A stretch of 48,081 nucleotides of DNA from Escherichia phage AN_ECEAS: the sequence record PP944860.1. One strand, 5' to 3'. The stretch's first letter is position 1, and every line of letters starts with the position of its first letter. The notes under the pieces are model-generated. The model was not told where the DNA came from. It was given only the letters and a program-made list of their open reading frames with translations, and did no database searches. Shown piece after piece: positions 2,031-44,453 of this stretch. The position numbers and the translations under genes are program-made.

Positions 2031-3491
2031 ATGGAGTTAGTTGAAATCGCTTCAAATAGCTGCGAAGGACTTGAGGCAAAAGCGAAGGCTTTAATGCCAT
2101 CATTTCAGCCTTATGACAGTATTATTCTGGTAGGTGACTTGCCAGTCAGGTGTTTAATGGCGTCTGGAACAGACCTAAGCATTACTGATATCAAGTTCCT
2201 AACTTTCGGTAGCCGAGCAAGGCTAATCACTGAAATTAACAAGATGATTGCTGATGGTTGGGAGATTTTCGGCGAGCCAAAGGCTGACGCAAACAGATTT
2301 GGCACAATTATGACCAAAGGCTTTCAGGGCGCTAAGGGTACGGCTGGTGTCGCTGGCCCGCAAGGTCCGCAGGGCGTTCAGGGTTTGCAGGGTCCAGAAG
2401 GCCCGCAAGGTCCAAAAGGTAATGATGGCGATGATGGTTCTCAAGGTGAGCGAGGACCACAAGGTCCGCAGGGTATCCGTGGCGAGCAAGGCGTTCAAGG
2501 TCCGCAGGGCATCCAGGGGCCAATCGGCTTAACTGGTGATACAGGTCAGCAGGGGCCAGCTGGTCCAACTGGTGCTACTGGTCCTCGTGGACCTCAAGGT
2601 GTGCAAGGTGAGGCTGGTCCTGCTGGCGCTACAGGTCTGGAATTTAAAGGCGCATGGGCTCCAGGTATCGAATACAAAGCAAACGACGCAGTGGCTTATA
2701 ACGGTTCAACATGGTTTGCTGTGACTGGAAATACAGACGAGACACCAGGGACGGGAACATCATGGCAGGTAATGGCATCACAAGGTTCTCGCGGACCAGC
2801 CGGACCAGAAGGCCCGCAAGGTGATGTTGGCCCGCAAGGTGAGCAAGGAATTCAAGGACCAATCGGAGCAACTGGACCATCTGGACCTCAGGGCGCAAAA
2901 GGTGATACAGGAGACACTGGACCAGCAGGACCAGAAGGACCACAAGGTTTAACTGGACCAGCCGGACCGCAAGGCATTCAAGGACCAGCTGGTGTTCGAG
3001 GTGCTACTGGTGCAACTGGTGTAAACGGAGCTAATGGCGCCACAGGACCGCAAGGGCCAGCTGGACCAAATGGTGATTCAGGTCTTAATTACACATATCA
3101 GAAATGGTCAAACGTAGCAAATGGCGTTGGGTATGTAACAATCCCCGGGATGCCTAATACACAAATAGGAGTTAACAGGAATTCTGCCGGAGCAATTGTG
3201 TACACTCTCTATAGTACTGGTGGAACCGTTAGGTATCTTGATTGGCGCGCTGAGATACCATCATATGATACAAATGCAATAACCACGGCTGCTGGCACGG
3301 CGACAACACCAAGCTCTGCTGGTGTAATAGCAACGATGAATACCGTTTTATATAATGGGTTAAGATCAGTCAAATTTATAATTAAGGATTGGGGCGCATC
3401 AAGGATTGCTGTAATTGAATGTTACCAACACGGAAGGGCTAACTCAGACGCGAGGCCTGTTACTATCGAGATGCGCTCATTCTCTTACTAA
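2031..3491 (+). CDS. collagen-like (Gly-X-Y) fibre protein with a CBM5/12-like insert between two triple-helix tracts
   Basis: Two long uninterrupted G-X-Y tracts (approx 2319-2636 and 2784-3083); ATG 2031 has RBS AGGAG whereas ATG 1998 has none; extended -10 upstream. Confidence 0.7.
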
Positions 3492-4616: not shown

Positions 4617-4862
4617 ATGGTACGTTTAGAACACATTGGCGCATGCTCAGTTAACTACAAGGATAAATATTACCTTCCTGGTGATATCATTGAGGCTGAT
4701 GAAATCTGTACTGGCCTTAAAGCACTCATCGCTCAGGGTATTCTTGAGATTGAAGGTGACGGTAAGACTTCAAAGCAGATCGCGTTAGAGGTTAAGGCGA
4801 AATCTAGGCGCAAAGAACCGAAGACCATTGACGAAGCTCAGACTGGTCAGGAATATAAATAA
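4617..4862 (+). CDS. hypothetical protein (single-gene unit between two terminators)
   Basis: ORF with RBS AAAGGAG, flanked by terminators at 4532-4553 and 4869-4890. Confidence 0.5.
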   Translation: MVRLEHIGACSVNYKDKYYLPGDIIEADEICTGLKALIAQGILEIEGDGKTSKQIALEVKAKSRRKEPKTIDEAQTGQEYK

Positions 4863-4868
4863 CCAAAT

Positions 4869-4890
4869 GGGCGCTTCGGCGTCCGTTTTT
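4869..4890 (+). terminator. rho-independent terminator
   Basis: GGGCGC-TTCG-GCGTCC stem-loop plus T5. Confidence 0.6.
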
Positions 4891-4903
4891 GTATGGAGGT
4901 TTT

Positions 4904-5299
4904 ATGAACGAACAAGCATTGGCCTTTATGAGGTCACTAGTTCCAGCTTTGCGTAACGTGCAAGATGAAACGCTGGATGTATGGCTTGAACTTGCTAAAC
5001 TTTACATCTGCACCAGTAAATTTGGTGATGATGCTTACAAGGCGCTTGCACTGTACACTATGCACATCGCCTTTCTTGATGGTGCGCTTAAGCAGAATGA
5101 GTCTTTGGATGATTATGGCAAGAAGGTGACTAGTTACTCCCTGAGTGGTGAATTTTCCATTAGCTATGAATCAACATCTCAATCGCAGTCAGCACTAACA
5201 GCAACTCCGTGGGGCCGACTGTACTGGAATCTTCTACGTAAGAAAGGTGGTGGATTTGGCTTAATTACGTCCACTTGGCGTGGGTGTGGTTGCCTATGA
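4904..5299 (+). CDS. putative head-tail adaptor protein
   Basis: ORF with RBS GGAGG before ATG 4904; position between capsid and tail genes. Confidence 0.3.
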   Translation: MNEQALAFMRSLVPALRNVQDETLDVWLELAKLYICTSKFGDDAYKALALYTMHIAFLDGALKQNESLDDYGKKVTSYSLSGEFSISYESTSQSQSALTATPWGRLYWNLLRKKGGGFGLITSTWRGCGCL

Positions 5300-5667
5300 A
5301 TTACTCACAAGTCGAATCATTGATGCGAACTGGCATCAATATCTTTAGTGATGGTGACGGAATCTTTACCATGGAAACTGGCAAAGGCGGTGTAGAAATT
5401 GTTGATGGCGTAGAAGTTCCTGTATCTGGTGGCACTGCATTAATCAAGGGGCTGGTGAGGGGAATTAAAACCAGGGATATTGATGGTGAGTATATCCAGT
5501 TTGGTGATAAGCGAGGAATCTTTACTTCTGAAGTTCCAATCTTACAGGGGTGCAGGATTATTGTGGACGATGAAACTTACACGGTAGTTGACCCGAGGCC
5601 AGTTAAACCAACAGGTACTGTAGTCGCATATAGGCCAATCCTAAGGAGGGTTGCTACTTATGGCTAA
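5296..5667 (+). CDS. putative head closure/connector protein
   Basis: ATG 5296 overlaps upstream stop (ATGA); position. Confidence 0.3.
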   Translation: MNYSQVESLMRTGINIFSDGDGIFTMETGKGGVEIVDGVEVPVSGGTALIKGLVRGIKTRDIDGEYIQFGDKRGIFTSEVPILQGCRIIVDDETYTVVDPRPVKPTGTVVAYRPILRRVATYG

Positions 5668-6103
5668 GTTTGGTGGAAACCTCGAGGTTCAGACTTTCTA
5701 CAAAGACATTAACGGATGGATTGCGTTCGTTGAAGATTCCGTGAAGGATGTTGTTTATCTAACTGTTGAGAAGGCGTCTGAGGATATTGTAAAGCTATCC
5801 CCGGTTGACACAGGAAGATTTAAAGGCAACTGGCAGGTTACTGCGAACGCCCCAGCACAACAGGCACTTATCGACAGGGATGTTGCTGGCTCAGATACAA
5901 TAGCAAGGCTAAAGAGACAGGCGAGAGCTGTAGCTAATGCACAATCTACCAAGGTAATTTTCATATCTAACGTCGTTGATTATAGCGTTCATCTTGAGTA
6001 TGGTTCTTCATTGCAAGCGCCAAACGGGGTTCTTGGAGTGGTTGAGACAAGGTTAGGCAGGTATTTCTCTGAAGCGGTCGAGGAATCAAGGAGAAAACGA
6101 TAA
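5660..6103 (+). CDS. putative tail completion protein
   Basis: ATG 5660 with RBS AAGGAGG; position. Confidence 0.3.
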   Translation: MAKFGGNLEVQTFYKDINGWIAFVEDSVKDVVYLTVEKASEDIVKLSPVDTGRFKGNWQVTANAPAQQALIDRDVAGSDTIARLKRQARAVANAQSTKVIFISNVVDYSVHLEYGSSLQAPNGVLGVVETRLGRYFSEAVEESRRKR

Positions 6104-6501
6104 TGCAATATGAACTATCTTTAGCAGCAAGGAGGTTTGTAACTGATTTGGTTAAAACATTTCCAGTCAGGTATCCAATCTCCTACGAAAACGTAGCCTT
6201 TTCTCCACCAAGAAATGGTGGGATGTGGCTGAAATACGACTATACTGAGGCTGATACAGTAACCTATAGCTTGAGTCGAAAGTGCAAATACTATGTAGGC
6301 ATGGTTCAGTTATCTGTCTTTTTCTCCCCTGGTGATGGCGTTGATAAAGCGAGGAAACTAGCTAATCAATTGGCAGAATCAATGCTTGATGGTACAATGC
6401 TTGACACAGGCTACATTTATGAGGGCGGAGTAGTTCACCCGGTAGTGAAGTCAAAATCTGGCTGGTTTATTCCAGTTCGTTTCTATGTTCGTCTTGACTA
6501 A
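6103..6501 (+). CDS. putative tail terminator protein
   Basis: Translationally coupled ORF immediately upstream of the major tail gene. Confidence 0.3.
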   Translation: MQYELSLAARRFVTDLVKTFPVRYPISYENVAFSPPRNGGMWLKYDYTEADTVTYSLSRKCKYYVGMVQLSVFFSPGDGVDKARKLANQLAESMLDGTMLDTGYIYEGGVVHPVVKSKSGWFIPVRFYVRLD

Positions 6502-6512
6502 AAGGAAAATAT

Positions 6513-7172
6513 ATGGCCCATCTCAGCAATGGCACCCAGGTGTTCGTAGAAGGCACCAGGGGTGATACTATCGACGTAACGGCAATTTCCAACGCTGTTA
6601 CTCCTGTTTTAACTTTGTCCAGCGTGGCAGACATTGCACGCGGTGACTACCTGTTGTTTACCAGCTCTGCTTCAACTCTGCTTGCTGATAAGCAAGTTCG
6701 CGTTACCGCTGTAACTGGTTCCACTGTAACTGTTGAAGGTATTGATACCTCCAGCACCACTAAGTTCCCTGCTGGTTTAACTGGTGAAGTGGTTAAGATT
6801 CTTAGCTGGTTTGAGGTTCCTTGCGTTCAAGACGTATCCACTGACGGCGGCGAGCAGCAGTTCGTTAACTTCCAGTGTTTGTCCGATAACCGTGAGCAAC
6901 AGATTCCAACTTACAAGTCCGCGGTAACCAACACCTATACGTTCGCGCACGAATACACCAACCCGGTATATCCGATTCTGCGTAACTATGATGAGTCTGG
7001 CCAGGTTGTTGCAATTCGCCTGTTCGTACCTCGAGCCAGTGAAATGCGTCTTCAGTCAGGAACTATCGCTTTCAACGACACCCCGAGCATTGGTGTTAAC
7101 GAAATCGAAACGGTATCCATCGCTGTTTCTATTCGCGGAAGGCTAAGTTCCGTAGCTTCTGAGCTAGCATAA
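6513..7172 (+). CDS. putative major tail protein
   Basis: 219 aa, RBS AAAAGGAAA, strong terminator downstream, precedes chaperone and tape-measure genes. Confidence 0.5.
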   Translation: MAHLSNGTQVFVEGTRGDTIDVTAISNAVTPVLTLSSVADIARGDYLLFTSSASTLLADKQVRVTAVTGSTVTVEGIDTSSTTKFPAGLTGEVVKILSWFEVPCVQDVSTDGGEQQFVNFQCLSDNREQQIPTYKSAVTNTYTFAHEYTNPVYPILRNYDESGQVVAIRLFVPRASEMRLQSGTIAFNDTPSIGVNEIETVSIAVSIRGRLSSVASELA

Positions 7173-7177
7173 TAACC

Positions 7178-7200
7178 AACCCTCTTCGGAGGGTTTTTTA
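7178..7200 (+). terminator. rho-independent terminator after major tail gene
   Basis: CCCTC-TTCG-GAGGG stem-loop plus T6. Confidence 0.75.
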
Positions 7201-7203
7201 TTG

Positions 7204-7222
7204 ATAGCACTTTTTGTTAAAG
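7204..7222 (+). promoter_or_regulatory. dyad-motif promoter element ATAGCACTTTTTGTTAAAG
   Basis: TAGCA-N5-TGTTA; TATAGT 7242-7247; CATCGAAA start region; 27-nt leader to ATG 7281. Confidence 0.6.
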
Positions 7223-7280
7223 GCTAAGTCGCGGATTGCTGTATAGTTCATTCATCGAAAAGAAATGAGAGATTAATGAA

Positions 7281-7529
7281 ATGAACAACGTAAAAAACAT
7301 CATCAAACTTGCCGCTGCTCTTGGTGCTTTCTACCTGGCAATTCAGATTGTTAACCCAACTGGTAGCGCAACCGCAAACTCTGATGCAATAAAATATCAG
7401 ACCAAATTCAATAGCGCATATTCATACTGTGAAAAAGTTGCTGGCGATAAAGTTAATCAGATTATGACGCATGGTCGCGAAGTGTGCACCGAAGTTGCTC
7501 ACAACATTGTAAAAAACGAATCAAAGTAA
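7281..7529 (+). CDS. small protein with N-terminal signal/TM segment (moron inside tail module)
   Basis: Hydrophobic N-terminus KLAAALGAFYLAIQIV; own dyad-motif promoter at 7204-7222 placed right after a terminator. Confidence 0.5.
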   Translation: MNNVKNIIKLAAALGAFYLAIQIVNPTGSATANSDAIKYQTKFNSAYSYCEKVAGDKVNQIMTHGREVCTEVAHNIVKNESK

Positions 7530-7564
7530 TATAATAATTCAACATAAACAAAGGAGATAACGAG

Positions 7565-7879
7565 ATGGCAAAATTTAAACTTTCACTAAAGGCGCTGCCT
7601 GACTTTAAACTTCCAGTTAAGTTTCAGCTTGCGAATGGTGAAGATGCGGAAGTGGTACTGACGGTTAAGCACAAGAAATCATCCGAGTTGCAGGAGATTC
7701 TTAATCGTGAGAACTTCAGTACTAAAGAATTGATTAACGAAATCTGCTCTGATTGGGATTTAGAAGAGCCATTTAACGATGAGAACGTAGATGAGTTCAC
7801 CAACCTTTTTCCGGGCGCTGTGCCATCGTTGATGGATAGCTACATGAAAGCTCTGGCAGGTCAGCGAGTAAAAAACTAA
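7565..7879 (+). CDS. tail assembly chaperone (G-like)
   Basis: Small ORF immediately upstream of tape measure; ends in slippery heptamer A_AAA_AAC. Confidence 0.6.
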   Translation: MAKFKLSLKALPDFKLPVKFQLANGEDAEVVLTVKHKKSSELQEILNRENFSTKELINEICSDWDLEEPFNDENVDEFTNLFPGAVPSLMDSYMKALAGQRVKN

Positions 7880-8193
7880 AACGCGCAGTATACTTACAAT
7901 ACCAGTCACCGCCAACGGATGCTGAACTCGAAGCTATCGGAATGAAACGTTCCGATTATGAAGGTGATGAGCCTGAAGAGTTATACTTCGATGAAACAAT
8001 GATGCAAAGCTGGGATGTGTACTGTGCCATGTCAACTCAATGGCGAGTAGGGGCTTGCGGTGCCACAGGCCTTGATTATAATTGCCTTCCATTCTTGTTC
8101 AAAGTCTATAAAATAGATGATGACGAAATGGTACTTAACGACATCAGAATACTTGAGGCTAAAGCCTTAGATATGATGAACGCCAAGAAATAG
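7565..8193 (+). CDS. tail assembly chaperone -1 frameshift fusion product (G-T-like); slip at 7870-7876
   Basis: The -1 frame is open from 7840 to 8193 and overlaps the 3' end of the G-like ORF; heptamer AAAAAAC lies in the overlap. Confidence 0.55.
7870..7876 (+). other. programmed -1 ribosomal frameshift slippery heptamer A_AAA_AAC
   Basis: X_XXY_YYZ heptamer in zero frame of 7565..7879, two codons before its stop; -1 frame continues to 8193. Confidence 0.6.
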
Positions 8194-8216
8194 CCATCCT
8201 TCGGGGTGGCTTTTTT
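8193..8216 (+). terminator. rho-independent terminator-like hairpin before tape-measure gene (possibly attenuating)
   Basis: GCCATCC-TTCG-GGGTGGC stem-loop plus T6. Confidence 0.6.
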
Positions 8217-8230
8217 ATTATGGAGACAAC

Positions 8231-11203
8231 ATGGCAACTAACGAAATTGCTGGTATCACGCTAGCCGTCGACGTAGCTCAGGTCGATAAGGGTACGCAAT
8301 CCTTACAGAAATTCAGGCAAGCAAACGAGCAAGCTGCAACAGGCATTAATAGCTTCGTCAACGCCGAACTTGTAGCCAAGACTCAAGCAAGGGACACTGC
8401 AAGGCAGCTTGAGGAGCAGCGCAAATCTTTCGCATCACTTCAGCAAGCCATAGACCCAACCGCTGCTAAATTCCTGAAGTTGCAGAAAGCAGCAACAGAT
8501 TTGGACAAAGCATTTGAATCCGGGATAGTTCCTGATGATGAATTCTTCAGGCTTGGCTCTGTTATTGAAACTCAAATCAATAAGCTAAACAGGTCTAAAG
8601 CCGCTCTTAGCGAAGAAGGCAGGGCTGCACTACAGGCATCAATAGATAAAGAGAAAGCAACAACAGCAGCGCAAAAGTTCATTCAATCTCTTGAGAACGA
8701 GGCGAATGCAGCAAGCCTGACAAGGACTGAACTTCTTCAGCTTAAGGCTGCTCAGCTAGGAGTTAGTGACCAGGCTGCACCGATTATCGACAGGATTGGA
8801 AAGGCTGCCGAGGCATCTGCGGTACAATTGCAGAAGCAAAGCTCCGCTTTTGTTAAGTCTGGGCTTAGTGCCGGTCAATACAAGCAAGCAATACGACAGC
8901 TACCAGCTCAGATTACAGATATCGGAACATCTCTTGCTGGCGGCATCCCAATCTGGCTCATTGCAATTCAGCAGGGCGGTCAGATTAAGGATAGTTTTGG
9001 TGGCATTGGCAATACAGCAAGGTTTGCATTAGCAGCCATTAATCCATTAACGGCAGTTGTTGGGACTTTGGGATTGGCTCTTGGTGCTCTTGGTGTTGCA
9101 GCTTATCAGGCCGACAAGAATACTCGCGGACTAGCATCAACGATAACACTGGTTGGCAACTCAACTATTACATCAACAGCGCAGATAAATCAGGTTGTTG
9201 ATGGAATCGAGAGCTCAACGCTAGCCACGCGCGGACTTATCCAGGAGATAGCTAACAGCCTGGTAGCAAACGGCAATCTAACGCTTACACAGATAGACAA
9301 AATAACTAAGGCAACCGCGCAGTGGGCAACTGTAACATCAACTGACTCGAAAACTATTCTTGGGTACTTTGACCAGATTACAAAGGACCCAATTCAAGGT
9401 CTGATTGCACTCGATAAGCAGTTCAACTTCCTTCAGTCAGGGCAGTTAAAATACATTGAGAATATCAGGAAGACCGCTGGAGAAACGGAGGCTGTAACAG
9501 CAGCTACAGAGCTATTCGCTAACGTTATGGAAAACAGGCTCGCGGACGTTGCGCTAAGCCTTAACCCGCTTGAAAGTGCATGGAATAGCTTCAGGAAGTT
9601 TGTAAGTGAGATCTGGGATGATATAAGCAAAAGGACGCTTGGGGCGCTTAACTTAATAACTGACGTTGTTGCGGGTACGATTGAGCAGATAAGGTCGTTA
9701 ATAAACTCCGGTGATATCCTATTAGGCGAGTTTGCAATAGCCGCAACCAAGACTCTTCAGTCAATCCCTGGACTTGGGGATTTAGGCAATGAGGCAATCG
9801 CTGAACAGCAAAAGATTGTTGATGCAGCCAAGAAGCAAAATGAGGAGTTAGCAAAAAGCATAGCTGAGCGAGATGCTAGAATCAGGAAGGGTGAGCTTGG
9901 TTATGTTGAGAGTAACAATAACACCAACCCGAGCGGCAACAAAACATCAACTGATAAGGAGTTCGGAGCAAGGAAGAAGGCGCTAGCTGATGAGCTTGAT
10001 ACAATAAAGAAAGCAAGGAGCGAGAGGAATAAGGCAGTAAAAGAAGAGAGGGATTTAACTTTATCTTATGAATCTGGTGTTCTTGCTCTTCAGGCTCAGT
10101 TAAAGGTTTTACAAGAGCACAAGACGATAAACGATGTAATAAGTAACGAACGAAAGCAACTATTCCAGGAGGAAGCAAAGTTTGCAATACTTGAGCAAAG
10201 AAAGGCCGATGGCAGCTTAACTAAGTCCCAAGCTAAGCTACTTGCTCAGAAGAATATCATTCTTGAACAGGCTAAACAGAAGGCTGAGCTTGGTGACCAG
10301 ATTGTGCTTCAGGAGAGGTCAAACAAGTTACTTGATGACAACCTCAAGAAGACTGTGCAGATTAAGAATGAGGCAAATAATGTTTCGCTTGCTGCTAATT
10401 TATCTGACAGGGAGAAGCAGAGGGCAAAAGAGCTTCAGGCTCTACAGTCCAATCAGGTAAACAAAGGTGGCTCTGTTGATGATACTGACTTTCAGGCTTT
10501 ACTCGAAGCTAGGCGTAATTTCTATGCTCAAGAGGATGCGCTACGTGAAAACTGGCTCGCTGGTGTGCAGTCATCCTTCGCAAATTGGGCAGAGAGCGCG
10601 ACAGATGCTTTCTCAATTGCTGGTGAATTAACAACTTCTGTCTTTACAGGAATTACGGAGCAGATTACTAGCCTTGTGACAACTGGCACGGCAGACTTCA
10701 GGAGTTTTACCGTTGAAATCCTGAAACAGATTGCGAAGATTGCTACTCAGCTTCTGATTGTGAAGGCGATTGAGTCAAGCTTAAGTAGCTTTGGTGGCAC
10801 TGGCGGCGCAATTGGTTCAATTGGTAGCGCTCTTGGCTTTGCTGGCGGCGGTTATACTGGTGATGGTGGGAAGTATCAACCTGCCGGAACTGTGCACCGC
10901 GGTGAGTTTGTATTCACAAAAGAAGCAACAAGCAGAATTGGCGTTAAGAATCTGTATAAGCTAATGCGAGGTTATGCAAATGGCGGTGCTGTTGGTGGGC
11001 CTTCTGGATATGCTAATGGTGGAGTTGTTGGCGGTACTAATGTCAGTGTTGGTGGTGTGACGGTTAACGTAAGCTCTGGATTTAGTAGCGGTAATGATGC
11101 TAAGGCGATAGAATCTGGAGTCAAGGTTATCGTTGCTGAGGAAATCAGCAAGTCATTCCAGCAGGGCGGCAGAGCCTTTGCTTATCTGAGGGGTTACAAC
11201 TAA
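8231..11203 (+). CDS. tail tape measure protein
   Basis: 990 aa, long helical/coiled-coil regions, Gly-rich C-terminal part, canonical position after chaperones. Confidence 0.8.
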   Translation: MATNEIAGITLAVDVAQVDKGTQSLQKFRQANEQAATGINSFVNAELVAKTQARDTARQLEEQRKSFASLQQAIDPTAAKFLKLQKAATDLDKAFESGIVPDDEFFRLGSVIETQINKLNRSKAALSEEGRAALQASIDKEKATTAAQKFIQSLENEANAASLTRTELLQLKAAQLGVSDQAAPIIDRIGKAAEASAVQLQKQSSAFVKSGLSAGQYKQAIRQLPAQITDIGTSLAGGIPIWLIAIQQGGQIKDSFGGIGNTARFALAAINPLTAVVGTLGLALGALGVAAYQADKNTRGLASTITLVGNSTITSTAQINQVVDGIESSTLATRGLIQEIANSLVANGNLTLTQIDKITKATAQWATVTSTDSKTILGYFDQITKDPIQGLIALDKQFNFLQSGQLKYIENIRKTAGETEAVTAATELFANVMENRLADVALSLNPLESAWNSFRKFVSEIWDDISKRTLGALNLITDVVAGTIEQIRSLINSGDILLGEFAIAATKTLQSIPGLGDLGNEAIAEQQKIVDAAKKQNEELAKSIAERDARIRKGELGYVESNNNTNPSGNKTSTDKEFGARKKALADELDTIKKARSERNKAVKEERDLTLSYESGVLALQAQLKVLQEHKTINDVISNERKQLFQEEAKFAILEQRKADGSLTKSQAKLLAQKNIILEQAKQKAELGDQIVLQERSNKLLDDNLKKTVQIKNEANNVSLAANLSDREKQRAKELQALQSNQVNKGGSVDDTDFQALLEARRNFYAQEDALRENWLAGVQSSFANWAESATDAFSIAGELTTSVFTGITEQITSLVTTGTADFRSFTVEILKQIAKIATQLLIVKAIESSLSSFGGTGGAIGSIGSALGFAGGGYTGDGGKYQPAGTVHRGEFVFTKEATSRIGVKNLYKLMRGYANGGAVGGPSGYANGGVVGGTNVSVGGVTVNVSSGFSSGNDAKAIESGVKVIVAEEISKSFQQGGRAFAYLRGYN

Positions 11204-18167: not shown

Positions 18168-18412
18168 TATTTCCACTCCTTAGACCCGTGATCTGCAACT
18201 GAACCGCCATAACCTCCACCAGCCTTGCTCTCAATACCAGCGTAGCGCACATCAACTTCACCAGCCGGTACAATCACGCCACCTTTCCATTTAGCCACGC
18301 ATACACCGTTTGCTTTCGTTGCACACCATCCGTCAGGACGCGGAGCAGAAGAGCAACCCACCATTATGATTGCTGCTGCTGCGATGATTGAAAGTTTGAT
18401 TAAGTTAGTCAT
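18167..18412 (-). CDS. small lipoprotein (Cor-like superinfection-exclusion candidate)
   Basis: N-terminus [20 protein letters not shown] with lipobox-like MVGC; RBS AAGGAA; own dyad-motif promoter. Confidence 0.6.
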
Positions 18413-18473
18413 TTTCGTATTCCTTGTGAGGTTCGTTTCGATGGAGTAATCATACATCATCTATAATCTTTGT

Positions 18474-18492
18474 CTTTAGCAATTCGTGCTAT
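18474..18492 (-). promoter_or_regulatory. dyad-motif promoter element (minus strand)
   Basis: Reverse complement of ATAGCACGAATTGCTAAAG; TATGAT and CATCGAAAC follow on minus strand before lipoprotein gene. Confidence 0.6.
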
Positions 18493-24395: not shown

Positions 24396-24414
24396 ATAGC
24401 ACGAATTGCTAAAG
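24396..24414 (+). promoter_or_regulatory. dyad-motif element with no + strand gene downstream (lies in leader of the minus-strand tailspike gene)
   Basis: Perfect ATAGCACGAATTGCTAAAG; a degenerate reverse copy at about 24462-24480. Confidence 0.35.
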
Positions 24415-26011: not shown

Positions 26012-29000
26012 ATGCTTCCAGTAGAGCGCTTAGTGGCAAACTTTGATCAAGAGAAAATCAAACAGATTCAGAAAGATTACCAGTTTGGAGACATAACTCC
26101 TTACGAATTCCAGTGTGTAACATTTGACGCAATTGGTAAGGCTATTGGTAAGTACGAGGCTCCATTCATCGCAGACCTGTCTGTATCTGCTGGTAAAACA
26201 ATAATTCTTGCCATGATTGGGAAAAGAATGGAGCAACTTGGACTTCCTTATATGGTACTGTCTCGCCAGTCAGAGATTATCAGCCAGAACGCAGAGGAAC
26301 TCCGTAACTTCGGTATCCGTAATAGCGTCTATTGCGCTGGACTTAACGTTAAATCAGTTTACTACCCAACCATAGTGGCTAGTGAGGGTACAGCTGCCAA
26401 TGGCCTGTTTAAGGGGCTTGGTGACTATGTTCCTGCTGTTATCGCGATAGATGAGTGCTTAACTGGAGACACGATGATAACCACCGATTCAGGGATGATG
26501 AGGATTGATAGCGAAGACCTTATCAATCATAAAATAAAATGCATAAACGAAAGCACTGGTGATTACTTCTATCATAAGCCAAAAAGAGTTTTTACTAATG
26601 GTGTAAGACATGTATCATCAATTAAATTAGAAAGCGGAGAGGAAATAAAATGCACGAGTACACACAAACTTTATTCGAACGGCTGCTGGGTAGGAGCGGG
26701 AAAACTTCGTATTGGGATGAATCTGTCGCTAGACGGCTCGCAGGACAAATTTACGAAAAAGCTCCTGCGTGCAAGTGTGGCTGTGGTGAAAAAGTTATGC
26801 CGCATTCAAGCAAGGGGTTAGGCGTACTTCTTAAGAACCCTTTCGATTTCTATTTGGATTACAGAACGGGGCATCATAATTCAACCGTCAACCCATCAAT
26901 GGAGGTTGATGACTTTTTACATCAAAACATTCTTGCGGCAATGGCTGGTGATGGTTGCTTGATTAAAAATACAGAAAAAGGAACGCATAGGCTATCTTGG
27001 AATATGGGAAATAAGGAGCACGCACTAAGCAAGGTTGAAAGGTTTGCAAAACTAAACCCTAGATACAGGGAGAAGAAAAACCCTGGATTTGGCGACAACT
27101 GGTTTTGCGTATCAACATCATGTACGAAAGTTCTGGATTCATATGCTGATAAGTACGGAAATTCTAAGGATGGTTACGATATTGGAAAGATATGCAGAGA
27201 GCTTGATCCAGTTGGTTGGGCTGCTTACTTTGGTGATGATGGTCATTGCACTGTAAGCTCAGGGAAGAGGGTTGTAGAAATCCACACCGAATCATTTAGC
27301 AGGCGTGAAGTTCAATCAGTAGTTGATGCGCTAATAGCATTTATTGCTAATGACGGAGTTAATGTTAGAAGCTATATTGGCGGCAAGAAAAAGAGAGAGC
27401 TTTACTCAGTATCAATAACAACGAGGTCGGCACAAGATGAGTTTTTTAAGAGAATTAGTAAGCACATGGAAAATGGCGTGGAATACAAAATCAAGCAAAA
27501 TTAAAGACATCTCACCCATTGGCAAGGAACTTGTTTGGGATATAGAGATGCCTGAGCACCATAATTTCATTGCTGACGGGGTCGTGGCACATAATTGCCA
27601 CATGGTGGACCATATGGATATCGTAGAAGCTGAAGAGAATGAGGAAACATTCGAGCAGATGAGCACGAAGAAGGGTGAGATGGTCTTTAAGGATGGTGTG
27701 AATACCGGGCTTCTTGGCACTGGTCGCGCGCAATACACGTTAATCATTACCGAAATGAAGCGTCGATGCAAGGAGAAGTACGGTCGCGAACTTCGTATCT
27801 TTGGGTTAACTGGTAGCCCGTACCGTAACAACGACCACATTGTAGTTAGTAACCCAAATGTCCGTGGATTCTGGCGCAAAACTGTAATGCAAGTGCCAAC
27901 CAGCTACCTTGTTGACTTGGGGTTCGTTGTTCCTACTGTCTACGGTGAAGTTGGTGATTTGGGCTACGACCTTAGTGAGTTCACTCCTGATGGAAGTGAT
28001 GGGGTTAAGGACTTCAGCAAGAAAGAAATGGATGCGATGGCTGCAAAGATTCACGAAAACCAAACGATGACACAAAAGATAATGGGATTTGCTGCTAGGT
28101 TTATGGAAACAAGGAATGCTGCATTGGTAACTTGCGCTGGCAAACAGCATTGCGAGGAGGCGGCAGCCGCACTTCCAGAAGGTGTTACTTGGGCGATAGT
28201 TACCAACTCCACTGGTGATAAGAAGCGTAGAGAGATACTTGAGAAGGCAGCCAGCGGAGAATATAAGTTCATATTTCAGATTGGTTGCCTCACAACTGGC
28301 GTAAACTGCCCCCCGTGGGATACAAGCATTATCCTGAGGAAGGTTGGTAGCATTACTCTACTCATTCAGTTGCTTGGTCGTGGTATGCGTATCCTTAAGA
28401 AGAAGCACAAAGAAGCTGGAATGGTAAAAGATGACCATGTTGTTCTTGATTTTGCCGGGACGCTTGACGATATGGCAGAACTCTACTTCGACCCAATTAT
28501 AGAAGAGGTTCAGGACCAGAAGTTTAAGTCATCCAGGAAAGGGGGTGATGAACCAAGAATTTGCCCAGCATGTTCTTATGAGAATTCTCCTTTCGCACGG
28601 CGCTGTAATAATGTGATTGACGGTAAACGATGCGAGCATTTTTTTCAGTTCCGTCTTTGCGAAGATATTGAGGACCCGCAGACGAAAGTTATCGTTAAGA
28701 AAGGTTGCGGAGAGAAAAATGACGTTGCAGCAAAGAACTGCCGCTGCTGCGGAGAGATGCTGATAGACCCAAATGCAAAGCTATCTGGAAAAATGTATCG
28801 GAAAGGGGACTGGTTGAGAGTTTATGACTTCAAGATTGGGTTGACAAAAAACCAGTCAGGGATCGTTGCTTCATATGAGGTAATGGCTCATAGTGGAGAT
28901 AAGTTCCGAGCTTATGAAACATTCTTCCCGGAGTCAGACCATCGTGTTTGTTCTGTCAAATGGAAGGCGTTTTGCTCAACTCACATCGAGAACAGGACTG

Positions 29001-29146
29001 AGGCTTTTAGGATTGGCAGATTGCGTAATGCTAAAATGATTATGACAAATGCACATCTTTTCCGTGCGCCGCTAAGGATTACGCACCGCAAGAATCAGAA
29101 GTCGCAAGATATTATCGCCAACAAATCATTTACGATGGAGGATTGA
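26012..29146 (+). CDS. SF2 DNA helicase interrupted by an intein in motif II (exteins 26012-26455 and 27596-29146)
   Basis: Walker A SVSAGKT; DE|CH box restored on splicing; motif VI QLLGRGMR; C-terminal zinc ribbons; reading frame is not continuous through the intein. Confidence 0.7.
26456..27595 (+). mobile_element. intein with LAGLIDADG homing-endonuclease domain (endonuclease domain in a different frame)
   Basis: N-terminal CLTGDT and block B TSTH; C-terminal ...HNFIADGVVAHN followed by Cys; two LAGLIDADG-like motifs ILAAMAGDGCL and WAAYFGDDGHC in ORF 26650..27504. Confidence 0.75.
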
Positions 29147-29147
29147 T

Positions 29148-29567
29148 ATGAAAATCACAGACAAAGGTGATTACCTCGAGTTCTATGGCGGACCGGTGAA
29201 GTCATGCCCAAAGGAAGACGATGAACAAATCTTCTGCTCTGATTGGGTGAAATACAACTATCCGCAGATTGTTTACTGGCACACGATTAACGAAAATAAA
29301 AAGAGCATTGGTCAAGCAATAAAAGACCAAGCCAAGGGGCTTCTCAAAGGTGTGTCAGACTGCTTATTTCTGATACCTGAGTCATTGCGTGGCGGTTATC
29401 CATTTGGCGCCATAGAGTTAAAGAGGGCTGGTAAAACGCAAGCAAGCCCAGTTAGCAATGAGCAAAAGTCATTCCTAAAAAGCGTAAGGGAATCAGGCGG
29501 TTTCGCAGCGGTGGCTTATGGAAGAGAGGGTTTTCTTGCGGCATTCGCAGAGATGATAAGAAAATAG
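29148..29567 (+). CDS. putative VRR-NUC-type nuclease
   Basis: 139 aa with ...GAIELKRAG... motif; coupled to helicase stop. Confidence 0.4.
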   Translation: MKITDKGDYLEFYGGPVKSCPKEDDEQIFCSDWVKYNYPQIVYWHTINENKKSIGQAIKDQAKGLLKGVSDCLFLIPESLRGGYPFGAIELKRAGKTQASPVSNEQKSFLKSVRESGGFAAVAYGREGFLAAFAEMIRK

Positions 29568-29582
29568 CACGAATTGCTAAAG
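29564..29582 (+). promoter_or_regulatory. dyad-motif promoter element ATAGCACGAATTGCTAAAG
   Basis: Overlaps stop of 29148..29567; TATTAT and CATCGAAACG follow; upstream of 29646. Confidence 0.6.
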
Positions 29583-29645
29583 ACGAATTGGTGAGTTGGT
29601 GTATTATCAACTCATCGAAACGAAACAAAGAGAGAGATAAATAAA

Positions 29646-29834
29646 ATGAAAGACATTATTACTAAAGAATCCCAAAGCTACTACGCCTCATACTATGAGA
29701 CAGTTAATGGTTTTAAATTTATTGATATAGAGCAAGGTGGAAACGCCGTTACGCTAACTAGCGAAAAAGATTTAAATGACATGATTTCGTTCTTAGAAAA
29801 AGTGAAAGAGCATTTAAATAGCACGAATTGCTAA
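29646..29834 (+). CDS. hypothetical protein
   Basis: Own dyad-motif promoter; RBS AGAGAGA; C-terminus NSTNC encoded by the next promoter motif. Confidence 0.45.
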   Translation: MKDIITKESQSYYASYYETVNGFKFIDIEQGGNAVTLTSEKDLNDMISFLEKVKEHLNSTNC

Positions 29835-29836
29835 AG
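29818..29836 (+). promoter_or_regulatory. dyad-motif promoter element ATAGCACGAATTGCTAAAG
   Basis: TATAGT 29856-29861, CATCGAAAC with predicted +1 near 29868; motif also encodes NSTNC* of upstream ORF. Confidence 0.6.
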
Positions 29837-29895
29837 AGATTTCGCAGGGACGCGATATAGTTACTCCATCGAAACAAAACGCAGAGAGAAAGAAA

Positions 29896-30084
29896 ATGGC
29901 TACTATCTATACTGGTAAATTCTACGAATCACGCAAGACTGGTTACGAATATGAATTAGTAATTACAGATGACGGTTATGCTCTTGATGATGGTGAAGGA
30001 TACGCATTTGAAGTTAGCCCAACTTACAAATATGATCTGGAAACTGTTAAAAACGAATTCGGCGAAAAATTTGATGAGGTATAA
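29896..30084 (+). CDS. hypothetical protein
   Basis: Own dyad-motif promoter; RBS AGAGAGAAAG. Confidence 0.45.
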   Translation: MATIYTGKFYESRKTGYEYELVITDDGYALDDGEGYAFEVSPTYKYDLETVKNEFGEKFDEV

Positions 30085-30089
30085 GAGTA

Positions 30090-30311
30090 ATGGCAATTTT
30101 AACATTTGACAAACAATGGGAACTATTTCAGGCAATGGGGGTTCAGGAGCTACACAATGCTGGTTATAAAGGTAACTCATGGTTTTTAGCAGGATGCCTT
30201 GATTACAGCTTTGAAGAAGATTACTTGCGAACGGACATCGAAACATGGCGCGAACGCATGGTTGCAGACATTGCGGAAATGAAAAAAGATTGCCCGGAGG
30301 ATTTTGAATAA
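30090..30311 (+). CDS. hypothetical protein
   Basis: ORF in tightly packed operon. Confidence 0.4.
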   Translation: MAILTFDKQWELFQAMGVQELHNAGYKGNSWFLAGCLDYSFEEDYLRTDIETWRERMVADIAEMKKDCPEDFE

Positions 30312-30436
30312 TGAAAATCTTAGATAAGGAGATGTTCGAAATTGCACAGACTTATGCAAATGAAGCAGTTAAAACCGGATCAGAATATTGTTGGATGTGT
30401 GCTAAAGAATATCTGAAAATGGCTTATGACTTATGA
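30311..30436 (+). CDS. hypothetical small protein (41 aa)
   Basis: ATG 30311 with RBS GGAGG; overlaps both neighbours by 1-4 nt. Confidence 0.3.
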   Translation: MKILDKEMFEIAQTYANEAVKTGSEYCWMCAKEYLKMAYDL

Positions 30437-30681
30437 TAGTTGAAACCGGACGCGCCGCAGTTTGGGCGCATTGCGGAGAGGCGGGATTGCAGGATGACAT
30501 CAAGAAAATATCTAAATACTTCGATATTCAAGAAATCAGCGTTGTCTACGGCGGTAAGTTTTCATATATACAAGATCGTCCAAGGAAATATGTAAGAGTT
30601 AAACCAGGTGCCAGGATTGATGTTAACGAGTTCCTTAAATCTGAGGGATTCAAGTTTAAGATAACGAAGCATAAGGATTAA
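30433..30681 (+). CDS. hypothetical protein
   Basis: ORF, translationally coupled. Confidence 0.4.
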   Translation: MIVETGRAAVWAHCGEAGLQDDIKKISKYFDIQEISVVYGGKFSYIQDRPRKYVRVKPGARIDVNEFLKSEGFKFKITKHKD

Positions 30682-30683
30682 TC

Positions 30684-30830
30684 ATGAAGCCACACGAATA
30701 TTCAGCATTGGTTAACGGGTTACTTGAGGTTTCTATAAAATTCAAGGATACGCAGCAGTTAAGGGAGCAGCTATCACGAGAACTCTCAAGGCATGGTATT
30801 AGACCGAGTCATAAGATGGAAAAGGATTGA
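30684..30830 (+). CDS. hypothetical small protein (48 aa)
   Basis: ATG 30684 after RBS AAGGA; fills gap between flanking genes. Confidence 0.3.
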   Translation: MKPHEYSALVNGLLEVSIKFKDTQQLREQLSRELSRHGIRPSHKMEKD

Positions 30831-30832
30831 GC

Positions 30833-31084
30833 ATGTTGGGTTTAGATTTTCAGCCGGAGCATTACGATTTAGTATATGGTCAAAGTGGTGCGAAGTTTAG
30901 AGCGATACCTATTTCTGACTGGTTTCCTCCTGACTACGTGGATGTTAATGCGAAGACGAAGGATGGTAAATGGGTACAGATTTACTATTCCCCAGCGTGC
31001 GGGAATCTCTGCATGACAGACCTGGACCAGAAATTAGAAATTAGTGCAGATTTAATTGATTACTGGTTGAAAGAGGTTGTATGA
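30833..31084 (+). CDS. hypothetical protein
   Basis: ATG 30833 with RBS AAAGGA. Confidence 0.4.
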   Translation: MLGLDFQPEHYDLVYGQSGAKFRAIPISDWFPPDYVDVNAKTKDGKWVQIYYSPACGNLCMTDLDQKLEISADLIDYWLKEVV

Positions 31085-31155
31085 AGTACACAGCCCTAGT
31101 AGCATTAGTACCACTGTTTAGCTTTACTATCTTATATTTTATTGTGATGAACTAA
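31081..31155 (+). CDS. possible 24-aa hydrophobic peptide
   Basis: ATGA overlap with upstream gene; entirely hydrophobic; speculative. Confidence 0.2.
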   Translation: MKYTALVALVPLFSFTILYFIVMN

Positions 31156-31165
31156 GGACTTAAAA

Positions 31166-32299
31166 ATGGCAGCATCAAAGATTACAAATGAACAGCTTAT
31201 CGAAGAGCTGAAAAGCGGCCTGACTAACAAGGCAATTGCAGAGAAGTACGGCATGAATATTCGCAACGTTGAGCTTCGTCGCAGTAAGTTGGCTAAGAGT
31301 GGTATTGGGCATGGTAATGAAGGTATCAAGAAGCTAGTTCCTGACGGTTATTTAGTCAAGGGCACCTCAACAATGATTGATGCGGAAGGGAATGAGAAGC
31401 TGCGTTGGGTTAAGACTTCGATTGATGCTGAGAAGCAAGAAGAGATGCTTCAGCAGATTGTTAAGGCTCTTACAGACGAGGTTCCTCGCGAGACTCCAAA
31501 GCCACTCAGTGAATCAAGCTATGAAGATACATTGAGTCTCTACCCTGTATTTGATATGCACATTGGCGCAATGGCTCACCATGCAGAGTGTGGGGAGAAC
31601 TACAGTACAGAAATTGCAGAGCGAGTGCTTAACCAATACTTTGATTATGCAGTTGCTAAGGCCCCGAATTCATCAAAAGCCGTATTACTGATTGGTGGAG
31701 ACTTCCTTCACTCGGATGGAATGGAAGCTGTAACTCCAACCAGCAAGCACGTACTTGATCAAGATAGCCGTTATCATAAACTTGTCTACGTAGCTGTTCG
31801 TGCAACTCGCCGCGCCGTCAGTAAGATGCTTGACAAGCATAAAGAGGTTGAGGTTCAGATTATACCAGGCAACCACGACCTTTCTGGGATGATTTGGCTT
31901 CGAGCTGCAATGGCTGCCTTCTACATGGATGAGCCTCGTGTAAATGTTGATGCCTCACCAGCCGCTCTTCACGTGACGGAGTTTGGTAAAACATTGTTGG
32001 GTTACTGCCATGGTCATGAATTGCGAAAGCCTGACACTCGTCTTTCAACTCTTGCGCGCGACCATCGCAAAGCATTTGGTAATGCTGAATACGTTTATAC
32101 ACATAGTGGCCATTATCATCATCAGACGGTTACTGAGGGTAATCTTGGAATTGATGAGTCACACGGTCAGTTGGGTGCTAAAGATGCGTACAGCGCAAAC
32201 GGAGGGTATCGCTCTTATCGTCAGGCCTCAGTAATTATCTATAGCTCAGAGTACGGTGAAGTTGGTCGATTCACTTGCCGACCTGAAATGTTTAAGTAA
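31166..32299 (+). CDS. HTH domain fused to calcineurin-like metallophosphoesterase
   Basis: N-terminal LTNKAIAEKYGMNIRNVELRRSKL; phosphoesterase motifs DMH, GGDFLHSD, GNHD, GHE, GHYHH. Confidence 0.55.
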   Translation: MAASKITNEQLIEELKSGLTNKAIAEKYGMNIRNVELRRSKLAKSGIGHGNEGIKKLVPDGYLVKGTSTMIDAEGNEKLRWVKTSIDAEKQEEMLQQIVKALTDEVPRETPKPLSESSYEDTLSLYPVFDMHIGAMAHHAECGENYSTEIAERVLNQYFDYAVAKAPNSSKAVLLIGGDFLHSDGMEAVTPTSKHVLDQDSRYHKLVYVAVRATRRAVSKMLDKHKEVEVQIIPGNHDLSGMIWLRAAMAAFYMDEPRVNVDASPAALHVTEFGKTLLGYCHGHELRKPDTRLSTLARDHRKAFGNAEYVYTHSGHYHHQTVTEGNLGIDESHGQLGAKDAYSANGGYRSYRQASVIIYSSEYGEVGRFTCRPEMFK

Positions 32300-37730: not shown

Positions 37731-37780
37731 TATTTTACTCTCTTCGTTGTTTCATTTCGATGAAATAACTATACAGGAAA

Positions 37781-37794
37781 AGCCCCGAAGGGCT
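37781..37794 (-). terminator. terminator-like hairpin embedded in a promoter spacer (minus strand)
   Basis: AGCCC-CGAA-GGGCT stem; T4 on minus strand; sits between dyad motif and -10 hexamer. Confidence 0.4.
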
Positions 37795-37811
37795 TTAGCA
37801 ATTCGTGCTAT
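37793..37811 (-). promoter_or_regulatory. dyad-motif promoter element (minus strand) with terminator hairpin in its spacer
   Basis: Minus strand reads motif, GC hairpin plus T-run, TATAGT, CATCGAAATG, RBS, ATG 37730. Confidence 0.6.
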
Positions 37812-43928: not shown

Positions 43929-44453
43929 ATGAAAGACGAAAACTTCACCAGTCAGGCGCAGGAAAAGGTCAGCTCTGGCAACTTTAAAGCCATGTACAAT
44001 AAAAAGTACTCAGACATTACAACGCTAGCCAAAAACCGAAGCATGACACCCGAACAGCTATTTGAATTCGCCGTGAAATACTTCTCATGGGCTGAGGACC
44101 AGGCAATCAAGGCAATCGAGACAGCCAGCTTCCAGGGTGTGGTAAAAGAGAGCCTGGTGCACAAACCACGAGTCTTCACGCTAACCGGATTCTGCCTTTA
44201 CTGCGGCGTCACCCATAGCGCCATCGAGAAATGGAGGAAGTCGGCTGGTTACGATGAGGTGATGGCATTCATTGATTCCGTGATTCGCGAGCAAAAGTAC
44301 CAGTTAGCAGCGTCCGGCATCATTAACCCTGGCATGATTTCTAAAGAGCTCGGTATCGACAAGCCGCAGGAGATTAACATCACCAGCACATCTTCAGCCA
44401 ACGACGTCGATACGATGAAAGAGGCGCTCGAATCGGTTATTAGCAAGTTGTAG
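43929..44453 (+). CDS. putative terminase small subunit
   Basis: 174 aa, RBS AAGGAGG, immediately upstream of HNH and TerL. Confidence 0.5.
   Translation: MKDENFTSQAQEKVSSGNFKAMYNKKYSDITTLAKNRSMTPEQLFEFAVKYFSWAEDQAIKAIETASFQGVVKESLVHKPRVFTLTGFCLYCGVTHSAIEKWRKSAGYDEVMAFIDSVIREQKYQLAASGIINPGMISKELGIDKPQEINITSTSSANDVDTMKEALESVISKL

Follow-up and report, generated by a model that had tools for sequence, protein, structure and literature searches.

What is a small gene, preceded by a promoter-like sequence, doing between the major tail and tail chaperone genes of Escherichia phage AN_ECEAS? An earlier note on this DNA (PP944860.1; we refer to the whole analysed stretch of 48,081 nt as the window) had described positions 7204-7529 as a self-contained moron, comprising a promoter and a small signal-peptide protein, that interrupts an otherwise conserved tail gene order. 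The dyad, the cassette elements and the 82-aa open reading frame with a hydrophobic N-terminus, which we call ORF82, all lie where that note had placed them, and the locus is arranged as follows.

6103-6501: tail terminator protein gene (PF13554)
6513-7172, + strand: major tail (tube) protein gene, the upstream neighbour of the slot (PF08813, E=1.4e-67; phrog_584)
7178-7200, + strand: intrinsic terminator of the major tail gene (stem AACCCTC/GAGGGTT with loop TTCG, spanning 7178-7195, then a T-run)
7202-7222, + strand: T1-family 21-nt repeat of the T group, tgATAGCACTTTTTGTTAAAG, matching the consensus aaATAGCACnnnTTGnTAAAA of phage TLS
7205-7219, + strand: dyad TAGCACTTTTTGTTA (TAGCA-N5-TGTTA) inside the 21-nt repeat
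7242-7247, + strand: -10-like hexamer TATAGT, 22 nt past the dyad
7253-7280, + strand: conserved leader beginning with CATCGAAAAG, with the Shine-Dalgarno (SD) sequence GAGAG at 7267-7271
7281-7529, + strand: ORF82, encoding an 82-aa pre-protein (PHROG 22925)
7281-7376, + strand: codons 1-32 of ORF82, predicted Sec signal peptide
Codons 33-82 of ORF82: predicted mature protein of ~50 aa, a two-helix domain with the invariant C50 and C69
7507-7535, + strand: sigma-70-like promoter TTGTAA-17-TATAAT, the retained ancestral promoter of the chaperone gene, overlapping the 3' end of ORF82
7565-7879, + strand: tail assembly chaperone G, the downstream neighbour of the slot (PF08748, E=1.1e-32)
7942-8193, + strand: DUF1799 / T part of the chaperone pair (PF08809, E=4.1e-14)
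About 8192-8218, + strand: first intrinsic terminator 3' of ORF82, the likely end of a transcript started at the cassette
8231-11203: tape measure gene

Positions 6400-8300 (1901 nt) share 100% identity with Escherichia phage ES (OR466728; Drexlerviridae, Braunvirinae). The GenBank labels of ES at this locus are wrong, in that "exonuclease" is given for ORF82 and "tail assembly protein" for the tube protein, both of which are contradicted by profile searches. The features under the match in phage IMM-001 (MF630922) include a "phosphoribosyl-ATP diphosphatase", another wrong public annotation.

The presence or absence of the gene in related phages had been proposed as a check of the moron claim. 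By tblastn, ORF82 was found in 81 phage records, every checked one of which belongs to the Braunvirinae, against 870 records with the chaperone and 1166 retrieved with a tube-plus-chaperone query, and ORF82 is missing from ~90% of the records with homologous tube and chaperone genes. Across a spread of 60 sampled records, tube and chaperone genes, where both were matched, span 1364-1367 nt only in the four ORF82 carriers and 1031-1100 nt in the rest. Among 80 IMG/VR loci, the gap between the two genes was 69-133 nt in 70, ~397 nt (with ORF82) in seven and 515 nt (Rtp) in one. Two of the IMG/VR loci were rejected as further examples of cargo: the 784-nt gap of L077 holds a second tube-like gene, and L068 encodes a 431-aa tail-fibre-like protein without a repeat.

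The phage SU57, a member of the Braunvirinae whose flanking proteins are 83% identical, has an empty site in which the terminator is followed by ttattgctaccaacctgcTATAATgcaatctcacaaacaataagaggattaa and then by the chaperone ATG. In the ORF82 carriers, the same ...ctcacaaacaataagaggattaa promoter/SD block stands directly past the ORF82 stop codon; the promoter at 7507-7535 is the counterpart of the extended -10 promoter at the SU57 empty site and is annotated as a promoter in CEB_EC3a. These clean boundaries indicate that the cassette was inserted between the terminator and the ancestral chaperone promoter. The proposed interruption of the conserved tail order was thereby borne out, with SU57 and most Drexlerviridae empty at this site, and ORF82 together with its upstream repeat is almost certainly a real accessory cassette. 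Within the Braunvirinae, ORF82 is nearly universal, with 81 records against a few that have other cargo or none, and may therefore matter more than a typical moron.

The position between the tube and chaperone genes would suit a structural or assembly component of the tail, and it is the sole argument for such a role. The earlier note had named a structural component conserved in all relatives as the finding that would speak against a moron; instead, SU57 and ~90% of the phages with homologous tails lack ORF82, and its product has a predicted signal peptide. In phage MSK, the ORF82 homologue (5578-5823) is the next gene after that for the tube protein (4812-5465), and MSK_000010 is the major tail protein (PMC8421802); we equate the homologue with MSK_000011 on the assumption of consecutive numbering, because the GenBank record is without annotation. 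In the available part of the MSK report, the 13 structural proteins identified by SDS-PAGE include MSK_000010 and MSK_000011 is not named among them (PMC8421802). As far as gene content tells, ORF82 is dispensable for building tails, and its absence from most relatives together with the predicted export makes a role in tail assembly so improbable that we treat it as excluded.

The description as a self-contained moron stood in part. An optional promoter-type cassette with a gene is indeed present in some phages and absent from close relatives at the same position, but the unit is not fully self-contained. The upstream terminator is found at the empty sites as well (SU57, AHS24, LL5 and T1) and is invariant in 12 relatives, and by this distribution it is ancestral. 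No terminator was found between 7529 and 7565, the next being that at 8192, so a transcript started at the cassette should reach 8192, and the chaperone gene G keeps a promoter of its own 3' of the cassette. The classical definition of a moron requires expression from a prophage, and the Drexlerviridae are a virulent family. TLS has likewise been described as virulent (PMC11447400). ORF82 is therefore unlikely to be a lysogenic-conversion moron, and the prophage-based definition would not apply; the accurate label is a moron-like accessory cassette with the putative repeat-type promoter of the family.

The terminator-promoter junction between the tube and chaperone genes is conserved family-wide, and the same cassette, identical up to the ATG, precedes different cargo in other phages. 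In Rtp, AugustePiccard, RobRod40 and MM01, the gene behind it encodes the 128-aa lipoprotein rtp34; this type of lipoprotein (AugustePiccard 2671-3057) has the lipobox LLAGC, is confined to four phages (five records) and is without a Pfam family; it should not be confused with Rtp45, the exclusion lipoprotein that has been characterised. Phagiculus (Rogunavirinae) has a DNA methyltransferase behind the same cassette, while CY1 has an unannotated 46-aa ORF, MILIGMLTAFFYYATGLTFWVSLGAAIGTYFVSALLALIVRALRNR (about 2389-2529), between the repeat cassette and its ORF82 homologue. The 46-aa product has two hydrophobic segments (phrog_16572, E=2.2e-5), and its presence in TR2, TR3 and Rao1 was inferred from the same 164-nt longer alignment as in CY1. 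Envelope proteins, namely ORF82, this two-TM peptide and the lipoprotein, make up three of the five cargos of the slot.

ORF82 matches PHROG 22925 end to end (E=2e-28), and an alignment of 15 homologues has 23 invariant positions, among them C50 and C69. Pairwise dN/dS ranges over 0.06-0.28, whether for the signal-peptide part or for the mature part, and the mature domain gave no sign of diversifying or positive selection by this measure. By these comparisons, ORF82 is a real gene under purifying selection. At 39.8%, its GC content is below the 44.1% of the genome, and the mature part is lower still (36.6%). It diverges faster than its neighbours: identity is 57%, where the chaperone has 70% and the tube protein ~88%. 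The first 28 codons (7281-7364) are nearly invariant across the family, and the mature part is less conserved. In Guelph-type alleles, dS is 0.15-0.26 in the first 28 codons versus 0.5-0.77 beyond them (7365-7529), and megablast identity to Guelph-type phages ends at 7364; this boundary may reflect either an unusually constrained signal peptide or an intragenic recombination breakpoint.

The family is very narrow. A word-indexed protein search gave only eight close clusters, a full HMMER profile search of 1.84 billion representatives gave a single 50% cluster, and a scan of 185,579 bacterial genomes gave one match, on a phage-sized contig (L103, 46.7 kb) in an assembly of the sulfate reducer Nitratidesulfovibrio liaohensis. 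This complete T1-like phage contig is probably a contaminant, and its ORF82 homologue (3001-3249) has an in-frame stop at codon 67. ORF82 has no Pfam (E<=0.1) or NCBIfam match, and a profile search of all PDB chains returned a single match at E=0.93, to an unrelated N-glycosidase.

The sequence in front of ORF82 belongs to a series. Exact matches to the pattern TAGCACNNNTTGYTA number 14 in the window, where 100 shuffles gave an expectation of 0.00, and a relaxed scan of the window yielded 17 oriented cassettes. Aligned on the dyad, the cassettes have in common AATAGCAC-N3-TTGCTAAAGA, followed by ~18 variable bases and, at 21-23 nt past the dyad, a -10-like hexamer (TATAGT, TATAAT, TATTAT, GATAAT or similar), which is missing from the fixed position only in the cassette at 24397. 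Next come the shared leader cCATCGAAAC and an SD of the GAGAG type, and the start codon stands 70-102 nt past the dyad start. The copy at 7205 has all of these elements: TATAGT is followed by the common leader CATCGAAA and the SD, and 76 nt separate the dyad start from the ATG at 7281. In an alignment of 12 phages, the terminator, repeat, -10 element and leader are nearly invariant while the 18-nt spacer varies, which is a typical footprint.

Phage TLS has 18 intergenic 21-nt repeats with the consensus aaATAGCACnnnTTGnTAAAA, located ~76 nt upstream of start codons; they sort into A, T and G groups, and similar ones occur in T1, Rtp and Rogue1 (PMC11447400). The ORF82 repeat belongs to the T group and agrees with the TLS repeats in its consensus, its intergenic location, its transcription direction and its spacing, since the published ~76 nt equals the distance from the 7205 dyad start to the ATG. 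The TLS paper differs in describing neither a fixed -10 element 22 nt downstream nor variable cargo at the tube-chaperone slot (PMC11447400). A stoperator, an enhancer site and an UP-like element have been proposed for the 21-nt repeat, whose function its authors list as an open question (PMC11447400).

A generic sigma-70 scan found no -35/-10 promoter at 7204-7280, so the promoter status of the cassette rests on the repeat architecture and its conservation. Three other readings of the region were rejected. TTGTTA is not a -35 element, as its spacer of 22 nt to TATAGT recurs in every cassette; TAGCAC-N-TTGC, by inspection, is not a sigma-54 promoter, as its AG-GC spacing is 2 nt short of GG-N10-GC and a conserved -10 is present; and the inverted repeat (I1) is not taken for a 5' hairpin, as the inferred start site lies 3' of its left arm. 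The leader folds with a z-score of +2.08, having less structure than shuffled sequence, and the cassette region has no Rfam match. The dyad is centred ~30 nt ahead of the -10 element, counted to its first base, and ~42 nt ahead of the inferred start site near 7254, and by analogy this geometry, with a dyad at about -42, may recall class II activator sites. If the cassette were to depend on a phage-encoded activator, the putative transcriptional regulator bas03_0040 of JulesPiccard (Bas03) would be one candidate.

The 7205 copy is the only one in the structural half of the window (1-18 kb); the other cassettes stand before genes for replication and recombination, before small ORFs and before the gene for the Cor-type lipoprotein (18170-18412). 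Because nearly all of them precede non-structural or Cor-type genes, ORF82 most likely belongs to the early/middle programme. A search of the literature on Drexlerviridae transcriptomics and start-site mapping found no usable data. We lean towards the view, also put forward by the earlier note, that ORF82 is transcribed from the repeat-type promoter before or independently of the late genes.

In some other cassettes, such as those in Phagiculus (672-750) and at 37766-37810 (- strand) of the window, the hairpin that terminates the upstream gene is embedded in the spacer that separates repeat and -10, so that terminator and promoter are packed very tightly together. The tail module of JulesPiccard contains two further T-group cassettes (14298 and 15559), each before an extra ORF (124 aa and ~160 aa, respectively); the ~160-aa ORF behind the cassette at 15559 has distant similarity to what the ES cassette at 44451 carries.

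An ORF-less junction with a reverse-oriented T-group repeat, TAGCACTTTTTGTTA, was observed in T1 (about 1935-1975), in herni (about 1465-1485) and in 22 of the 80 IMG/VR loci. In these T1-, Hanrivervirus- and related phages, the reverse repeat lies between the extended -10 promoter and the chaperone SD, a position that would be suited to an operator or an antisense promoter. A T-group repeat without an ORF raises the idea that the cassette serves to restart chaperone and tape-measure transcription past the major-tail terminator, ORF82 being a functionless passenger or a leader ORF. The lack of a terminator between ORF82 and G and the retention of the terminator-promoter junction across the whole family would agree with this. 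However, the promoter of G persists 3' of ORF82, the repeat is oriented oppositely in the T1-type phages, and ORF82 itself is under purifying selection with invariant cysteines. We therefore consider a mere restart function very unlikely.

We turned to the product of the gene. The N-terminus of ORF82 contains K5 and K9, followed by a 15-residue hydrophobic core, L10-V24 (Kyte-Doolittle maximum ~2.0); this core, LAAALGAFYLAIQIV, is rich in Ala, Gly and Leu. It is followed by N25-P26-T27-G28 and then by a cleavage motif, A30-T31-A32|N33, so that all features tested for a Sec (SPase I) signal peptide are present: an n-region, an h-region, a helix breaker and small residues at -3 and -1. Among the genes of MSK, MSK_000011 is one of only two for which positive SignalP 4.1 and TMHMM results were reported (PMC8421802). 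ORF82 lacks an L-x-x-C lipobox. On these predictions, the product is very probably exported to the periplasm, in line with the secreted or membrane-anchored protein that the earlier note had expected. In two homologues (ACG-M12 and P0003), the -3 position of the predicted cleavage site is Glu, suggesting that the protein may remain membrane-anchored in some alleles.

An AlphaFold2 model of ORF82, built from a 9-sequence alignment (pLDDT 67, moderate confidence), has helices at 2-23, 30-54 and 57-81. By our own reading of the helix boundaries, the modelled hairpin does not obviously bring C50 and C69 together. A Foldseek search with the model against PDB and BFVD gave no match at E<=0.001.

From these observations, we favour, at a probability of roughly one half, an explanation in which ORF82 is borne by an optional hot-spot cassette and encodes an early periplasmic protein with a receptor-independent role in the envelope. 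The cassette would occupy a cargo hot spot of Braunvirinae phages, extending from the major-tail terminator to the tail-chaperone promoter. ORF82 would be made with the early/middle genes, ahead of the tail genes, and the cassette transcript would continue across G and T as far as the 8192 terminator. The predicted pre-protein would be exported by the Sec pathway and cleaved after A30-T31-A32, leaving in the periplasm a helical product of ~5.5 kDa that contains both invariant cysteines. Its target would be the infected cell's envelope, at a receptor-independent step; it might, for example, keep secondary phages that have adsorbed from penetrating the cell wall or bringing in their DNA. Post-adsorption exclusion or envelope protection is favoured because tail assembly and receptor masking fit poorly and because three of the five slot cargos are envelope proteins. 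Superinfection exclusion as the specific function, which the earlier note had mentioned for such genes, is a tentative assignment, and the Pfam, NCBIfam, PDB profile and Foldseek searches revealed no resemblance, in sequence or in fold, between ORF82 and a known exclusion protein.

Exclusion could also operate by masking the receptor, as with Cor, T5 Llp and Rtp45. Like these proteins from T1/T5-like phages, ORF82 is small and predicted to be exported; it contains cysteines, and Rtp and AugustePiccard have a lipoprotein in the slot instead. The lipoprotein Rtp45 measures ~6 kDa and has a disulphide bond within its chain (10.1101/2025.07.07.663478). In contrast to Cor, Llp and Rtp45, however, ORF82 is without a lipobox, matches neither PF24052 nor another family, is not beside a receptor-binding gene and does not co-vary with receptor specificity. 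Its alleles are 91-94% identical in IME253 (FepA), JeanPiccard (LptD) and JulesPiccard (Cor annotation), indicating that ORF82 is not matched to the receptor. Moreover, the window already has a PF24052 lipoprotein gene by its receptor-binding locus, which, like ORF82, stands behind a repeat cassette. The missing lipobox, the dedicated PF24052 gene and the likeness of alleles across receptors leave receptor masking highly improbable.

The PF24052 gene (18170-18412, - strand; "Phage lipoprotein family", E=4.9e-39) encodes 81 aa with the lipobox MVGC, lies downstream of the tail-tip genes and matches the position of the JulesPiccard locus annotated as the Cor exclusion lipoprotein. The cassette before it (18170-18491, - strand, including the gene) has a G-group repeat in the same geometry as in the ORF82 cassette.

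The RI antiholin of T4 has a weakly hydrophobic N-terminal segment followed by a helical periplasmic domain, and ORF82 is similar in size with the same predicted layout. ORF82 might accordingly be a lysis-timing regulator of this type, with an N-terminal segment acting as a signal-anchor-release element and a helical periplasmic domain that binds the holin or senses superinfection. The Ala/Gly-rich, weakly hydrophobic core, the ~50 predicted helical periplasmic residues after it, and the higher conservation of the N-terminal 28 residues than of the mature part, which would be unusual for a disposable signal peptide, all fit such a regulator. There is, however, no homology to RI and no match to any PDB chain or Pfam family, and the gene is unlinked to lysis genes: in JulesPiccard, the lysis cassette (holin, endolysin and u-spanin) is complete elsewhere in the genome, ~25 kb away. 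SU57 and most of the family do without ORF82, and a lipoprotein or a methyltransferase can fill the slot. To our knowledge, lysis inhibition has not been described for T1-like phages. We judge a role in lysis timing to be quite unlikely.

An anti-defence or host-takeover factor acting on a periplasmic or membrane component of the host is likewise unlikely, if a little easier to reconcile with the data. ORF82 is optional, predicted to be exported and early, and diverges faster than its neighbours, and the slot is also used by a DNA methyltransferase, which is a classical anti-restriction cargo. The dN/dS values, by contrast, bear no sign of diversifying selection, and we know of few periplasmic anti-defence proteins.

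The preferred explanation, a periplasmic protein acting after adsorption, has parallels in other phages. Spackle (Sp) of T4 and Sim of P1 are small early signal-peptide proteins that mediate superinfection exclusion from the periplasm after adsorption. ORF82 resembles them in its small size and predicted signal peptide and, by analogy, in the early, periplasmic and post-adsorption action that we propose, but it has no detectable sequence or fold similarity to either, and we know of no T4-type tail lysozyme target in the Drexlerviridae. Among the morons of lambdoid prophages, gp15 of HK97 reportedly blocks DNA entry. Like morons of this type, ORF82 is an additional gene set among conserved tail genes, is missing from close relatives and has a small, predicted envelope protein as its product, and the promoter before it is a putative one of its own; unlike them, it is found in a virulent phage without a dedicated downstream terminator, has no sequence similarity, and is preceded by the repeat-type cassette of the phage family rather than by a host-type promoter. 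In T4-like phages, variable ORFs are said to be flanked by PeSL (promoter-early stem-loop) elements. The cassettes described here are similar to PeSL in that repeated, putative early-promoter units flank variable small ORFs and could provide homology for the shuffling of cargo, although their sequence and phage family are different and shuffling is deduced here only from shared cassettes with different cargo.

Small exported early proteins of virulent phages are a recurring source of superinfection-exclusion and envelope-modifying functions, and they can affect phage cocktails and the control of phages in fermentation plants; the relatives CY1, MSK/OzMSK and Rtp came from industrial or laboratory outbreaks. 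ORF82, an uncharacterised member of a very narrow family, is easily tested on a plasmid. In itself it is the expected kind of accessory gene, and the more interesting thread is the repeat cassette, with its fixed -10 partner, its accessory cargo in late operons and its reversed, cargo-free copy in T1-type phages. The slot thus constitutes a natural experiment on the 21-nt repeats, in which the same cassette occurs with different cargo or reversed without cargo.

A broader reading, about which we are doubtful, joins these threads: the T-group cassettes would be portable linkers, ORF82 a new receptor-independent exclusion family and the reverse repeat an operator. If this were true, the linkers would let accessory genes enter late operons, be expressed ahead of the late genes and be swapped by recombination. 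The tube-chaperone junction would be a hot spot, and ORF82 would represent a new periplasmic family that blocks secondary infection after adsorption. The reverse repeat would act as an operator on the chaperone promoter, implying a dyad-binding regulator that controls both.

Elsewhere in the window, the ORFs at 26012-26821 and 27437-29146 (269 and 569 aa) match the N- and C-terminal parts, respectively, of the JulesPiccard DNA helicase (29192-31186). Since two ORFs of ES match parts of one JulesPiccard gene, the helicase appears to be split or interrupted in ES, and a repeat-like sequence is located at 27335, between the two halves.
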